Origin: a virus
Length of the DNA: 64,000 nucleotides
Strand: one strand, 5' to 3'
Virus record (IMG/VR): IMGVR_UViG_3300048925_000129
In this document: positions 7,148 through 47,912 of the stretch, one piece after another
Layout of the letters: every line of letters starts with the position of its first letter
Position numbering within the stretch: position 1 is the stretch's first letter
The notes under the pieces: model-generated
Database searches by the model: none
Told to the model about the DNA's origin: nothing
What the model saw: only the letters and a program-made list of their open reading frames with translations
Translations under genes and position numbers: made by a program

Positions 7148-7382
7148 TTTGTTTAGTTAATGTTTTTGATTTTATAGGGGTCTTCTTTGCTATAGTTTGC
7201 TCACACTGAATAATAGCCCATTCATACTTACTCTCCTCCATGTTGTCAACAACTGTATTGATATCTAACTCTAAGTTTTTGTGAGAATACATTCTCTTAA
7301 ATATCATTTGTTCTGCTTCTGTACACTGAGCTAAAAGCTCTTTTAACATATCAGTGTATGCCTGTTTAATTTTTGGATTCAT
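7116..7382 (-). CDS. hypothetical protein
   Basis: ORF in operon. Confidence 0.6.
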   Translation of the reverse strand: MNPKIKQAYTDMLKELLAQCTEAEQMIFKRMYSHKNLELDINTVVDNMEESKYEWAIIQCEQTIAKKTPIKSKTLTKQNESTSNSSTG

Positions 7383-10865: not shown

Positions 10866-11671
10866 ATTTCTTTGTTTTTTCTTAATCTTTGAATAATTGT
10901 TCTAACACTACTATAAGGTAGTCCTAATAATTCGTGAATTTCTTTTTGGGTTTTTTCTTCTTTAAATAGATTCTTTATTTTTATAATTACCTCATCTGAA
11001 ACGTTTCTTCTAGTAAGGGTTTGAAGATATTCTTTAAACTCTAAAAATTTACTTTTTTTTCTATTAAGGGAAAAATCATACTCATTATTAAACAACAAAG
11101 AAATTAGTTTCTCTATCTGTTTATTTCCTCTTATTTCTAGCATAGCAGAATTTATAGAGTCTTGATTCCTCAACCTAATTTTAGAAGATTTTATTTTTAG
11201 ACTTAATAAGTATTGTTTTATTAATTCCAATATTGAAATATTTGAAGAAAAACAAATTGTGTAACCTTTATTTGAATCTCCATATATAGAACCATCTCCA
11301 TCAAAAAACCCTCTTAGCATATCGTTAAAATACTCTTGTGGAATATCAGGTAGATTTGTAGATAAGTAAGTTTTATTTTGAACTACTCCCAATTCTATTA
11401 TCTTATTGATAAGTCTTTTTGATGTAATACTTAATAAAGAATAAGACATATTGTTTATTACTTTAGTACTAATTACTCCAGAATAATTTACTTCTTGTTT
11501 TATAAATTCTAGTACTTCAATATCTTTTTTACTTAAACATATTGTTAAATTTCCTTTTGCTTTATTTATAGAACCATCAGCATAAATAAAACCTAAAATG
11601 TAAGCTTTATTAACTGAGTCAATAATATCAAAATAATTTTCATTCAATGTGTATTTTCTTGGTCTTGCCAT
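10862..11671 (-). mobile_element. free-standing double-motif LAGLIDADG homing endonuclease
   Basis: YILGFIYADGS and LRGFFDGDGS motifs, C-terminal HTH. Confidence 0.92.
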
Positions 11672-11728
11672 AATATTTTATTTATAGCAAATATACTACT
11701 CTTTAAATCAATATACAAATATATAAAA

Positions 11729-36042: not shown

Positions 36043-36061
36043 AATATAAAACTTTTGGTTG

Positions 36062-36134
36062 TTCTTTCAACGGGATTCGAACCCGTGACACACAGTTTTA
36101 GAGACTGCTGTTCTAACCACTGAACTATGAAAGA
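36062..36134 (-). tRNA. amber suppressor tRNA (CTA)
   Basis: Cloverleaf, anticodon arm GCAGT-CT-CTA-AA-ACTGT. Confidence 0.88.
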
Positions 36135-36374: not shown

Positions 36375-37194
36375 AAGCTACAGGTCTTGTTAGTTAATAT
36401 TCCACACCGAGTGCCTCAACCAAGGCTTTGGGAATCGAACCCTCTTCGTCTTTTTTCCAAATAAAAATGTTTTAAACTTTGTATTTGCTGTGTGTAGCTT
36501 TATCAAATTACCGTTTGATGTTAAAATTCCAATTTTTAGCTTTGTTTAATTTGCTGTAGGTAATTTTGTCAGATTGCATACTAAACGTGTGTTTGATTAA
36601 AATTCAAGTGTTTGTTTAATTTGCTGTTAGCAATCTTTTCAGAATAGTATGTTTGAGGATTTGAACCCCTTGAACTGTTTATGAGACAATTGTTTTAACC
36701 AAATTTTTTAGATTTGCTGTAACTATTCTTATCAAGTTTCTATTGTTTTTGGACTATTGCTCTACCAACTGAGCTACTGAAATCCTAAGACTCCAGAAGG
36801 GACTCGAACCCTTGACCCACAGTGTTACATTCCTAAATTTGCTGTTAGAAACTTTATCAAAACTCATTTTTTGTTTTATACGTTGTACTAACCACTATAC
36901 TATCTCCCAAATTTTTCTAGATTAACTTTGTTGGGAGAGGAGGAGTCGAACCTCCGTCTACGGCTCTGAATGCATAACTTTGTATTTGCTGTATGAGTTT
37001 TTATATATTCAGGTTACTTGGGGACGATAAAAGGTCCCGTTAAGTTAAGATTTAAGTCATTCTAGGACTTTCCTATACAATTTTACTTCTCACATACAGG
37101 ACCCGAAGTGTAGAGATGTCTGTGCTTTTGCATTCTACAGTTTCCGTTATTTGAATCAATTATAGTTGTGTGTTGTATTTGCTGATAGTAACCT
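36375..37194 (-). ncRNA. array of 7 Y-RNA-like (ACAGCAAA-stem) RNAs
   Basis: Units 36375-36500, 36505-36566, 36571-36636, 36641-36729, 36734-36854, 36859-37001, 37011-37194, each with own 7-9 bp terminal stem and conserved motif. Confidence 0.8.
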
Positions 37195-37206
37195 TATAAT
37201 AACACT

Positions 37207-37265
37207 GCAAAGATATGAAAACTTTTTGAGATATGCAAATCTTGCAGTGTTAAATTTATGTTAAA
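37207..37265 (-). promoter_or_regulatory. promoter for the RNA array
   Basis: TTTGCATAT..TATCTTTGC, TTTAACA x2. Confidence 0.8.
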
Positions 37266-42751: not shown

Positions 42752-42793
42752 TAAAAAATCCCTTGCAAAGTCGGTTGAGGATTCACAAGGGAT
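42752..42793 (-). terminator. attenuator-type terminator before tRNA-Thr
   Basis: ATCCCTTG..CAAGGGAT plus T6. Confidence 0.8.
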
Positions 42794-42825
42794 AGAAATT
42801 TATAAAAAATAAATTTGTGTATTGT

Positions 42826-42915
42826 CTATTCATAAATGACATCAGACAAAATCATCCCTGTTGAGTGCCCCTGGCAGCCAATAGTTATCTCGATATGTTG
42901 TCTAGTTGTTGTCAT
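42826..42915 (-). CDS. leader peptide B, MTTTRQHIEITIGCQGHSTGMILSDVIYE
   Basis: Lies between promoter (42935-43000) and terminator; residues 1-17 match downstream tRNAs. Confidence 0.75.
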   Translation of the reverse strand: MTTTRQHIEITIGCQGHSTGMILSDVIYE

Positions 42916-42934
42916 TGTTTAAATTTTTACTTCT

Positions 42935-43000
42935 GCAAATATACAAAATGTTTTTGACATATGCAAATTTCTAAAAGAAATTATTAGTTAAAGTTTTGTT
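42935..43000 (-). promoter_or_regulatory. promoter of tRNA operon B
   Basis: TTTGCATAT..TATATTTGC. Confidence 0.8.
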
Positions 43001-43856: not shown

Positions 43857-44369
43857 TTATTTTAGCAAGTACTGCTCCCAATCTTTAGGAATTGTACCTA
43901 GATGTTTTATAAACATCAAGTAATGTGGTCTTTTAGGATTTGGATGTTCCTTACCCCACTCTTCTATTGTTAAGTCATTTTTTTCCGAGTTACACGGTTT
44001 ACATGCAGTAACTAAGTTGTCCCAAGTGTCTTTTCCACCTTTCGATTTAGGAATAACGTGGTCGATAGTCATTGCTCTTATTTCGTCTTCTCCACAATAC
44101 ACACAAGTGTAGTTATCTCTTTTGAAAACATTGTCCCTGTTACAAGGAACTTTGTGGATATCCAGGTTAATGAACCTTGGAACCCTGATAACTGATGGTC
44201 TGAAGATCTCTAAATCTGGATTAACCAAACCAAACTTCTCTGGGTGTTCATGCAGGATGTCTGCATTACCCTTAAGAGAAACTACATAAGCTCTTTCAGA
44301 TGTCACAATTTGTCTGGGTAAGTACTGTGAATCTAACACCAAGCACTTACGAAAATCTACTTTTTTCAT
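43857..44369 (-). CDS. HNH endonuclease (McrA-like)
   Basis: RDNYTCVYCG, TIDHVIPKSKGG..TWDNLV.AC..CN; start moved to 44369. Confidence 0.9.
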   Translation of the reverse strand: MKKVDFRKCLVLDSQYLPRQIVTSERAYVVSLKGNADILHEHPEKFGLVNPDLEIFRPSVIRVPRFINLDIHKVPCNRDNVFKRDNYTCVYCGEDEIRAMTIDHVIPKSKGGKDTWDNLVTACKPCNSEKNDLTIEEWGKEHPNPKRPHYLMFIKHLGTIPKDWEQYLLK

Positions 44370-44389
44370 TGTTACACTTTTTTGATTAG

Positions 44390-44470
44390 TACTGATAGTA
44401 GGACTCGAACCTACACCCCTTTCGGGAACAGTTTCTAAGACTGCCGTGTCTACCATTCCACCATACCAGC
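44390..44470 (-). tRNA. tRNA-Leu (TAG)
   Basis: Cloverleaf, long variable arm. Confidence 0.92.
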
Positions 44471-44747: not shown

Positions 44748-45023
44748 TTATTTATTATCTTTGTTTCTTCCAATGTGATACCCATCACAGAAGACACATT
44801 TGTAAGTGCTAAAGTGCACTCCTTTCTTTTTCCCCATACTAATTGCTGACTTCAAAGCAGTCTCCTTGGTATTATACATAACCTTAGGCTTACCTGTATC
44901 TGCCCTCTGATGAGAATTTTTATGGAACATTCCCCAGGCATTTCTGGTAATAAAGAAATTTTTAATGAATCTCTTGAGTGGAAGCTGATCCTTCAATGCT
45001 ATTACTATGTTCTTTAGTTTCAT
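44748..45023 (-). CDS. hypothetical Zn-binding protein
   Basis: YKCVFCDGYHIG. Confidence 0.65.
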   Translation of the reverse strand: MKLKNIVIALKDQLPLKRFIKNFFITRNAWGMFHKNSHQRADTGKPKVMYNTKETALKSAISMGKKKGVHFSTYKCVFCDGYHIGRNKDNK

Positions 45024-45231
45024 ACTCTCCTTTTATAATTCTTACTATGTCCTTTGGTGATACTACTGTGCATCGTTTCATTACATCTTGAATTCTACCT
45101 TTAGGTATATCGTAATGATTTTTATGAAACCAGCAAATGTTGATCCCAAGGTCTCTAGCCATTTTATGCAGATTCTGTTTAGAATATGGCAAGCAGACTA
45201 GATGTCTTTTGTTATCACAAATATATTTCAT
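44962..45231 (-). CDS. DUF4031-like protein
   Basis: HL..LH.MA..LGI..WF..HYDI. Confidence 0.65.
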   Translation of the reverse strand: MKYICDNKRHLVCLPYSKQNLHKMARDLGINICWFHKNHYDIPKGRIQDVMKRCTVVSPKDIVRIIKGEYETKEHSNSIEGSASTQEIH

Positions 45232-45233
45232 TG

Positions 45234-45304
45234 TACCTCGTAAAGGAATCGAACCTTTTCCACTTGTATGTAAGACAAGGAAGCTACCGTTACATCAACG
45301 AGGC
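45234..45304 (-). tRNA. tRNA-Val (TAC)
   Basis: Cloverleaf. Confidence 0.88.
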
Positions 45305-45365
45305 ATACAACTATGTGAGTCCTAACTAAACTTATCTCACTTTTACTGGAACCCGTAGGTAGTTT

Positions 45366-45563
45366 TTAAATGTTGTTATTCCAGGTTCTATATCCTGTGG
45401 AAGGGTCAGTATCGACTTTCTTTCCAACAAATGTTATCTCCCAGAATTCTTCACCCAACTCTAGTAGTTGAACAAAATTTCCTTTCTTGGCATGTTTAGA
45501 ATCAATCCAGCATTGTGTGAATTCTTCTTTGCCTTTTTTCTTAAATGTGCATTGTGCCCACAT
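45366..45563 (-). CDS. hypothetical protein
   Basis: ORF between tRNAs. Confidence 0.55.
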   Translation of the reverse strand: MWAQCTFKKKGKEEFTQCWIDSKHAKKGNFVQLLELGEEFWEITFVGKKVDTDPSTGYRTWNNNI

Positions 45564-46223: not shown

Positions 46224-46230
46224 ATGTTTG

Positions 46231-46306
46231 CCGTGATAGAGGGATTCGAACCCTCGTTTTTGAAGAGTGACAGTCTAAATCCCCATCCAATGGAGCATAT
46301 ACCACG
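46231..46306 (-). tRNA. tRNA-Asp (GTC), atypical D arm
   Basis: CT-GTC-AC loop, T arm intact. Confidence 0.75.
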
Positions 46307-46314
46307 AGTTATAT

Positions 46315-46352
46315 AAAAATAAAAATCCCTACGAATTTTACTAAGTAGGGAT
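46315..46352 (-). terminator. attenuator-type terminator before tRNA-Asp
   Basis: ATCCCTAC..GTAGGGAT plus T tract. Confidence 0.8.
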
Positions 46353-46385
46353 ATTAATCAAAAAAACTAAAACTATGAACCAAAA

Positions 46386-46502
46386 TCATGTTTGTGTGCT
46401 TTTACTTAATCCTACTATTGTAGAGCTATTATCCCATAACTTATCTGCCCCCAGTACACTAGGGTTAAAGGCAAACGAATAAAAGTTATAAGAGTTTTTC
46501 AT
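46386..46502 (-). CDS. leader peptide A, MKNSYNFYSFAFNPSVLGADKLWDNSSTIVGLSKSTQT
   Basis: Lies between promoter (46520-46578) and terminator; residues 2-26 match downstream tRNAs. Confidence 0.75.
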   Translation of the reverse strand: MKNSYNFYSFAFNPSVLGADKLWDNSSTIVGLSKSTQT

Positions 46503-46519
46503 TGTATATTTTTTACTTT

Positions 46520-46578
46520 GCAAAGATATGAAATTAATTTCACATATGCAAATTTAATTGGTTAAATTTTTGTTAAAT
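46520..46578 (-). promoter_or_regulatory. promoter of tRNA operon A
   Basis: TTTGCATAT..TATCTTTGC, TTTAAC x2. Confidence 0.8.
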
Positions 46579-46637
46579 TTTTAGTAATGCAAAGATAGGA
46601 AATAAAATCCAAAAAAGCAAATACATAAAACTTTTTA

Positions 46638-46847
46638 TTAAAAGTATTCTTCATCAATGAAGAAATCCTCTTCATCTTCCTCCTCATCAATAAGGTGTAG
46701 TAGAGACTCATCTAAGTTTGAGTAAATACTACTGAACAAGGTTTTATCCTTATCCCAAATTCCAGTAGCTTCTGGTAAAACTGATTCCAGTTCACCTGAG
46801 TCCAGGAATGTATCATACAGATCTCTAAGTTTTGGGTTGTTCTCCAT
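46638..46847 (-). CDS. small acidic protein
   Basis: ORF. Confidence 0.6.
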   Translation of the reverse strand: MENNPKLRDLYDTFLDSGELESVLPEATGIWDKDKTLFSSIYSNLDESLLHLIDEEEDEEDFFIDEEYF

Positions 46848-47099: not shown

Positions 47100-47912
47100 T
47101 TAGAATGGACTATCATCATCTTCTGCTACTGCATTGGCTGCAAAAGGATTTTCACCTGTTGTAGTTGCTGTAACTGGAGTTTGTGTAGCCACTGGTGTTG
47201 TAGTTGGTTGAGTTTCTTCAGGAGCAGCTTCTGCCCATTCTTTGTAAAACTCAGATTGGTATACATTACCAGCTTTGAAATCTTCGTATCTCTTTAACTC
47301 ATACATTAGAACTTTAGACAGGAAAGTATCCTGAGCTTTGTAGTCCATTGTTTTTTGGCTTGGATTGATTGGGTCCTGTTCAACTATGAACATAGGAACG
47401 TTTCCTTTCTCTCCGAACTTTAATGAGAATTTGATTGGTTGATCTTTGTCTTGTCCTTCCTCTTGCTTATATCTGAAGTAAAGAATCTTGTCAACATATC
47501 CTCTTTGATTTTTATCCCTGTTTGAAGAGATGATAATCGACTTAGAGTAATCTAAGCTAGGAAGGATAGCAATTAGTTTCTTAACTTCATCATTTAATCC
47601 ACCTTTTATACTTTTAAGTGGTAGCTGAATTACATCAACTCCCGAAGGATCTTCATCAGATTGTACTGACAATTCTACGTAGCTAACTTTTCCTTTTGGG
47701 AATGTTTTCTCAGTAATTGCAAGGTATGAAACCTTACCGTAGTCTGTACTCTTATAAGGCTTTTGATAAGTCTTTCTTTCGTTTGCAGTACCTGCATCTA
47801 GAACGATCTCATTAAATCCTTCTTTAGGCTCTTTTGAGCTCTCATATAGTTCCCCTTTAGAGTTGATTCTTAGAAATGTAAAATTTCTCCCTGTTCCGAA
47901 TTCTTTTGCCAT
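47100..47912 (-). CDS. putative single-stranded DNA-binding protein
   Basis: Flexible linker and acidic DDDSPF tail, near recA. Confidence 0.6.
   Translation of the reverse strand: MAKEFGTGRNFTFLRINSKGELYESSKEPKEGFNEIVLDAGTANERKTYQKPYKSTDYGKVSYLAITEKTFPKGKVSYVELSVQSDEDPSGVDVIQLPLKSIKGGLNDEVKKLIAILPSLDYSKSIIISSNRDKNQRGYVDKILYFRYKQEEGQDKDQPIKFSLKFGEKGNVPMFIVEQDPINPSQKTMDYKAQDTFLSKVLMYELKRYEDFKAGNVYQSEFYKEWAEAAPEETQPTTTPVATQTPVTATTTGENPFAANAVAEDDDSPF

Follow-up and report, generated by a model that had tools for sequence, protein, structure and literature searches.

A candidate ribosome-mediated attenuator before a twelve-tRNA operon in an uncultured phage with a Bacteroidota-type host

We analysed a stretch of 64,000 nt of viral DNA (IMG/VR record IMGVR_UViG_3300048925_000129; hereafter the window) from an uncultured phage whose host is of the Bacteroidota type. 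A short leader (leader A) stands before an operon of 12 tRNA genes, and we consider it probable that this leader is a ribosome-mediated transcription attenuator, which would give the phage feedback control over its own tRNA supply. The anatomy of leader A, its conservation, the covariation of its base pairs and the match between its amino acid composition and the downstream tRNAs are all observed. The unusual synonymous codons of leader A, which had drawn attention to it in a sequence-only reading, find their explanation in an RNA hairpin with co-varying pairs that lies within the reading frame. If the leader ORF reads decoding speed for the tRNAs that it gates, trp-type attenuation would extend to tRNA genes, and leader A would be a compact sensor of tRNA supply. 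To our knowledge, phage control of own tRNA genes is hardly known, and our full-text literature searches found no published account of leader-peptide attenuation of tRNA genes. Cultured phages searched at the DNA level gave no match to the window, and its RecA gives only a 53% match, to a Chryseobacterium phage. The sequencing runs listed as carrying this DNA come from root and wastewater samples; none is listed as RNA, and those inspected were contigs, probably of DNA, which carry no information on transcripts.

Every gene in the leader A region is on the minus strand, as are all features of leader A given below. A 69-codon gene ending at 46638 precedes both leader A promoters, which were located by pattern scans. 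The upstream promoter P1 (46590..46621) is of the Bacteroidota type (-33 TTTG, -7 TAnnTTTG) and is kept across all relatives. The main promoter P2 (TTTGCATAT-N-TATCTTTG, 46521..46552) is the recurrent consensus promoter of this phage; its motif (TTTGCATAT..TAnnTTTGCA) occurs at about 10 sites in the window, among them 47982, 42967, 39330, 37239, 50689, 15538 and 3449. The -7 box of P2 is followed after 18 nt by the ATG (46502) of leader ORF A, which has 38 codons plus a TGA at 46386 (46386..46502). Beyond the ORF lies the terminator hairpin, AUCCCUAC - 12-nt loop - GUAGGGAU (46325..46352, fold energy -11.2 kcal/mol), with its 5' side reading UAUCCCUACU at 46353-46344 and its 3' arm GUAGGGAU at 46332-46325, and then the U-run UUUUAUUUUU (46315..46324). 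The first gene past the terminator, starting 8 nt after the U-run, is a non-canonical tRNA-Asp(GUC) (46230..46306; Rfam tRNA and ARAGORN), which scores 26.2 bits in Rfam, under the gathering score, and matches in ARAGORN only at a relaxed threshold. Eleven further tRNAs (Trp, Asn, Phe, Tyr, Pro, Lys, Val, Ala, Leu(UAA), Leu(UAG) and Ser(UGA), in this order) reach to 43328 and complete what we call block A. The pattern scan found no consensus promoter on the minus strand from 46521 until 42967, which is the promoter of a second leader (leader B, see below), so the twelve block-A tRNAs depend on read-through of the terminator.

To collect relatives, we used the neighbouring 270-aa protein (47100-47912), which has 21 homologues at 99-39% identity, as a search anchor. 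Through these homologues and through scans of viral and metagenome sequences we obtained 12 further leader A loci (L001, L003-L008, L010, L012, L014, L016 and L017). An exact-word scan of viral contigs gave only one relative (96% identical), and of the three short loci that the neighbour protein brought up in metagenomes only L010 was useful. The resulting 13 loci share a common layout, at 86% to 39% identity of the neighbouring protein to the window's copy: each contains two promoters, an ORF of 33-44 codons at the same place, a hairpin with a U-run, and then tRNA-Asp. The ORF is open in all 13 loci, its length differences are multiples of three, and its conserved residues carry synonymous changes among loci. 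Because the indels come in threes and the conserved residues change synonymously, leader ORF A is probably translated; its start context is A-rich, which we take to be the expectation for Bacteroidota. Related leader peptides form 28 clusters in the protein collection. The peptide has a conserved core, NPSxLGA(D/N)(K/R)(L/A)W, which ends at Trp23, and has no PHROG match. A search of 46315-46640 against Rfam (E up to 1) found no leader family (Trp_leader, His_leader, Leu_leader, Thr_leader and others) and no T-box.

Several observations concern the tRNA genes of block A themselves. The tRNA-Asp(GUC) of the window (46230-46306, minus strand) has a weak anticodon stem; the homologous gene in L010 is split by an insertion of about 570 nt with an HNH-like ORF (1493-2142), and the one in L008 (around 11600-11700) also looks interrupted. 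Between block-A tRNAs of the window lie a gene for an HNH endonuclease and a number of small ORFs (43857-44456 and 44748-45563, minus strand), none of which has its own promoter. The inserts of the relatives at those places differ, and include PDDEXK, GIY-YIG, a restriction-methylase pair and DHFR.

Inside the reading frame, a long conserved hairpin (hairpin I) spans codons 4-24 (46432..46493), with an outer stem CUUAUAACUU/AAGUUAUGGG and an inner stem YCCNAG/CUNGGR, as seen in the MFE fold, in RNAalifold and in pair counts. Two of its pairs join third codon positions, Asn13 with Gly18 (C-G in 3 loci, U-A in 10) and Pro14 with Leu17 (U-G, U-A or G-U), and both are kept in 13 of 13 loci; in L014, AAC6/AAG21 has changed to AAU/AAA. 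Counting hairpin I together with the antiterminator helix described below, 89.5% of cells are paired, as compared to 43-53% when the partners are slid, and in 7 pairs both bases have changed; 3 of 500 shuffles give at least that many. The GC-ending codons UCG9, GCC11, AAC13, CUG17, GGG18 and AAG21 sit inside the hairpin I stems of the MFE fold. The conserved peptide residues also coincide with the stems, and the sole variable residue of the core is encoded in the loop. Hairpin I, a conserved fold overlapping the ORF, may serve as a pause hairpin, a role that is conjecture.

The comparison of loci indicates that synonymous codon choice in leader A is set mainly by base pairing in hairpin I and not by isoacceptor sampling. 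The sequence-only reading had listed TCT/TCG/AGT/AGC, AAA/AAG, AAC/AAT, GCC/GCA and CTG/TTA, all of which are present in leader ORF A, and had remarked on GC-ending codons among them as unusual for an AT-rich genome. We compared this set with a null in which the codons for the same peptide are drawn at the frequencies found in 43 long window ORFs (GC3 0.275). The pattern does not exceed chance: there are 10 GC-ending codons versus 8.7 expected (P=0.36) and 22 distinct codons versus 23.8 expected (P of at least 22 = 0.90), and the lean towards rare codons is weak (P=0.06). The same reading had further proposed that selection made each of these codons a test of a separate host isoacceptor, which we now regard as quite improbable. 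It would agree with the slight rare-codon lean, with the use of both UCN and AGY for Ser, and with the occurrence of both CUN and UUA Leu boxes in the sensing part of 12 of 13 loci, in a phage that has tRNA-Leu(UAG) and tRNA-Leu(UAA); against this, two Leu codons fall in two boxes at about even odds, no phage tRNA for AGY is found in the window, and codon diversity and the GC-ending count are at expectation. At residues that are fixed, the codons vary among relatives (all four for Val16, CUG/CUA/CUU for Leu17, GCA/GCG for Ala19), and a synonymous choice that varies in this way speaks against particular codons as isoacceptor probes. The wobble bases concerned are paired and co-vary. By the decoding rules, AAC and AAU are read by one tRNA-Asn, a single isoacceptor, and AAA and AAG usually by one tRNA-Lys.

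Downstream of hairpin I, a terminator and a candidate antiterminator share one RNA strand. Each of the 12 relatives analysed has a U-run behind a hairpin of -11 to -17 kcal/mol, which in L004 and L008 is built from other sequences. Two segments, AGUAGGAU (46416-46409) and GGGAUA (46435-46430), had been put forward as complementary to the terminator 5' arm and as the basis of a switch. Both are present where claimed. In the window alone, dinucleotide shuffles do as well as the best duplex between the 5' arm and the ORF (P ~0.48), and that duplex does not use AGUAGGAU, so the complementarity of AGUAGGAU exceeds chance only through comparison with relatives; there it holds in 12 of 12, and that of GGGAUA, which is not conserved, falls away. 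For the comparison we folded the RNA from just past the Trp codon to the end of the 5' arm, omitting the 3' arm. In all 12 sequences the 5' arm then pairs with the homologous codons 28-32, and the predicted antiterminator is a long irregular hairpin that encloses the A-rich tail of the ORF, the stop codon and the U-rich 3' UTR. In the window its 5' strand is AGUAGGAUUAA (codons 29-32, 46406..46416), whose partners, as long as the 3' arm is missing, are CCUACU and UUAAU. Pairing at the same place came to 3-15% per sequence in the shuffle control (28% in L004, for which the test window was wider). What the sequence-only reading had observed is thus real and in itself unremarkable, and its suggestion of an antiterminator is supported by the relatives.

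Natural variation supplies compensating changes: L004, L008 and L014 each have another arm sequence, and the partner is altered along with it. L008 has the arm UCCCUGUU and the partner AACAGGGA, which gives -13.2 kcal/mol with its own arm versus -7.6 kcal/mol with other arms. In L004 and L017 the partner strand is AAGUAGGG, which lies in a different frame of the ORF and faces the arm CCCUGCUU or CCCUACUU, and between L007 and L014 an A-U pair of the antiterminator became G-C. GUA is the Val codon of the antiterminator strand in 10 of 10 loci, in contrast to the core residue Val16, for which all four codons occur. GGGAUA (46430..46435, the Trp-Asp codons) was considered as a second antiterminator and rejected; L007, L014 and L010 have GGAAU there (Asp to Asn). 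A weak candidate for 'region 1', UCUAC (46420..46424), forms a small local hairpin with GUAGG. CUAC-N4-GUAG is found in 9 of 12 relatives, L008 has UUGUU..AACAG in its place, and the small hairpin does not prevent the antiterminator in our models.

We modelled the effect of a ribosome by masking a footprint of -15 to +14 nt around the A site; this size, like the speed of the ribosome relative to the polymerase, was assumed. In the pre-terminator transcript of the window, an A site at any of codons 2-25 leaves the arm sequestered with a probability of 0.6-0.8, which falls to 0.4 for codon 26 and to 0.1 for codon 27 and beyond. Of 12 sequences, 11 show the drop at this position and L008 shows no sharp drop. 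Folding with footprint constraints, which had been suggested along with the original claim, lets the antiterminator stand for ribosomes at codons 2-25 and removes it for those at codon 27 or later. Without a ribosome the 5' arm is still sequestered (0.65), because the CUAC/GUAG hairpin is too weak to prevent it. At equilibrium, folding of the full leader with footprints favours the terminator at nearly all ribosome positions in four of six sequences (the window, L006, L010 and L008) and flips only in L007 and L004. The terminator wins at equilibrium, so the switch would have to be kinetic, and folding of this type cannot capture it; in the E. coli trp attenuator, too, the terminator is the more stable helix and the switch is kinetic. 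The models thus point to a race as the likely logic of leader A, with read-through as the default when no ribosome is present. The stop codon is 33 nt upstream of the terminator 5' arm, a gap at which a terminating ribosome would leave the terminator uncovered and which fits the distance dependence as summarised in PMC4824070.

The composition of the leader peptide matches the tRNAs behind the terminator. Residues 2-27 include all 11 amino acids of block A and one outsider (Gly), which has P=4.4e-5, or 7e-6 when all 11 are required, given the amino acid frequencies of the window (0.61 for the block-A set, set A). Among 34 distinct leaders, 90% of the residues up to Trp belong to set A, as compared to 58.5% in the tail and 61% in the background. 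The pure stretch stops at residue 27, in agreement with the boundary that the footprint model places at codons 25-27. There is no run of identical regulatory codons, and the Gly18 codon and the AGY codon of Ser15 have no cognate block-A tRNA in the window. The best reading of the sensing unit, placed upstream of a conserved antiterminator, is the amino acid or codon box and not the isoacceptor, which corrects the isoacceptor idea. The correspondence is imperfect among relatives: L004 has lost five block-A tRNAs and retains their codons in the leader, and L010 has tRNA-Arg(ACG) in block A and no Arg codon in the leader. L004 has tRNA-Arg(UCU) in block A, with Arg codons in leader A and none in leader B; its sister L017 has tRNA-Arg(UCG) in block A and Arg in both leaders. 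As a natural experiment the Arg shift of L004 is suggestive, and not clean given L017.

These features can be combined into the following scheme. Transcripts would start at P2 or P1, and the 38-codon ORF would be translated. Before the 3' arm is made, the 5' arm AUCCCUAC would be captured by AGUAGGAUUAA to give the antiterminator hairpin. If a ribosome has reached about codon 27 or beyond as the arm emerges, it would hold that strand open, the terminator would form and the tRNA genes would be off; if it lags in codons 2-25, where nearly every codon stands for an amino acid carried by a downstream tRNA, the antiterminator would persist and the tRNA genes would be transcribed. Inferred in this scheme are translation of the ORF, the ribosome-polymerase race and the direction in which the regulation runs.

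Structural features of an attenuator are found in leader A: a promoter-proximal short ORF that is likely translated, a terminator before the first gene, no consensus promoter between them, and a predicted antiterminator pairing that excludes the terminator. The regulatory codons are cognate to the operon product at the level of amino acids, not at the level of synonymous codons. A short ORF, a terminator and a mutually exclusive antiterminator that uses the terminator 5' arm are also found in trpL, hisL, leuL, pheL and the multivalent thrL and ilvL of E. coli and Salmonella, in which leader codons are likewise cognate to what the operon supplies and ribosome position decides. Those attenuators control biosynthetic enzymes, whereas leader A precedes tRNAs. 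It also differs from them in that it has no tandem regulatory codons, about 25 codons sampling 11 amino acids once or a few times each, and in that its anti-antiterminator is weak and its ribosome-free default appears to be read-through. Leader A is, moreover, phage-borne, in a Bacteroidota-type host, and has no sequence relation to the leaders of amino acid operons (no Rfam match). The pheST attenuator, in which a leader peptide controls an aminoacyl-tRNA synthetase operon, is similar in that a component of the decoding machinery, not a biosynthetic pathway, is attenuated; its leader responds to a single amino acid (Phe). T-box riboswitches also sense tRNA status and switch between terminator and antiterminator before translation-related genes, but they bind uncharged tRNA directly and have no ORF, whereas the sensor of leader A would be the translating ribosome. 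As for tRNA genes, an Anabaena tRNA operon is reported to be controlled by the transcriptional repressor TrcR (PMC10272220), and phage tRNA genes are under active study as a counter to tRNA-cutting host defences (for example PMC10264068 and PMC11555353).

A second cassette of the same kind (42752-42967, minus strand) consists of a consensus promoter, a 29-codon ORF (leader B, 42915-42826) and a terminator (UAUCCCUUGUGA..CAAGGGAU plus a U-run), with tRNA-Thr following at once. Residues 1-17 of leader B use exactly M, T, R, Q, H, I, E, G and C, which are the amino acids of the tRNAs that follow (set B; P ~4e-7). In ten relatives, 98.7% of the head of leader B belongs to set B versus 39% in the background, and the variable sites toggle only among set-B residues. 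The pure stretch and the modelled boundary agree more loosely than for leader A. The peptide is unrelated to that of leader A, and the layout is alike. Leaders A and B may together form a two-leader device, which we put forward tentatively, in which a leader would compare the passage of the ribosome with that of the polymerase and read-through would be the default, so that a tRNA operon would be on when any of the matching host tRNAs is scarce and off once the phage tRNAs have restored decoding speed. An equally tentative part of this proposal is that A and B together spell all 20 amino acids, each only those behind its own terminator. If true, such a device could answer, for example, the cleavage of tRNAs by host anticodon nucleases.

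We weighed three further explanations of leader A. It may be a plain small gene (for a micro-protein or a small RNA) with a leaky terminator, past which the tRNA genes are read constitutively, the pairing and the amino acid match having no regulatory role; we consider this unlikely. The conserved peptide core would suit such a gene, and a 12-nt loop with a modest -11 kcal/mol makes the terminator probably leaky. The residues of that core, however, are conserved where they form the stems of hairpin I and vary where they form its loop, the peptide resembles no PHROG, and a gene of this kind would give no reason for an alternative pairing that is retained through changes of sequence and of reading frame or for composition matches at P ~4e-5 and ~4e-7 in leaders A and B.

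The other two explanations keep a switch and replace its sensor, and both seem very improbable to us. In one, a nascent peptide of the TnaC/SecM/SpeFL type would stall the ribosome near codons 23-25, perhaps when triggered by a ligand, and so keep the antiterminator. The core does end at Trp23, among the last positions where a stalled ribosome leaves the antiterminator free, but conservation follows the RNA stems and wobble covariation and not a peptide pattern, leader B has the same layout with an unrelated peptide, and the match of amino acids to the tRNA sets is left without explanation. In the other, translation of the ORF would be irrelevant, and the direct ligand of hairpin I or of the antiterminator, as in a T-box, would be a factor or a tRNA. 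The conservation of hairpin I with covariation and the position of the leader before tRNA genes are in line with this; the lack of any Rfam match at E up to 1 argues against a T-box, and an ORF that is open in 13 of 13 loci, changes length in threes, keeps its amino acids through synonymous change and has an A-rich start context in line with Bacteroidota argues for translation. Attenuation by a translating ribosome remains the reading that we prefer for leader A.

Some further observations were made around leader B and in the relatives. The leader B ORF stops at UAG in 9 of 10 relatives, and TAG makes up only 5 of 68 long-ORF stops; a tRNA with anticodon CUA is found downstream of leader B, at 36061-36134. 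Six relatives (L005 at 7255-7330, L012, L014, L004, L008 and L017) have a tRNA-Met(CAU) between promoter B and the leader B ORF, and the window is without it. In L004 (6952-8991 and 1-2595) a RecA-like gene of 679 aa has two RecA_N matches, which suggests an insertion or an intein, and a large gene adjoining it has intein and LAGLIDADG matches. Finally, a consensus promoter in the window is followed by about seven units (36400-37239, minus strand), each with ACAGCAAAU and pieces that resemble tRNA T-arms, and with no evident ORF.
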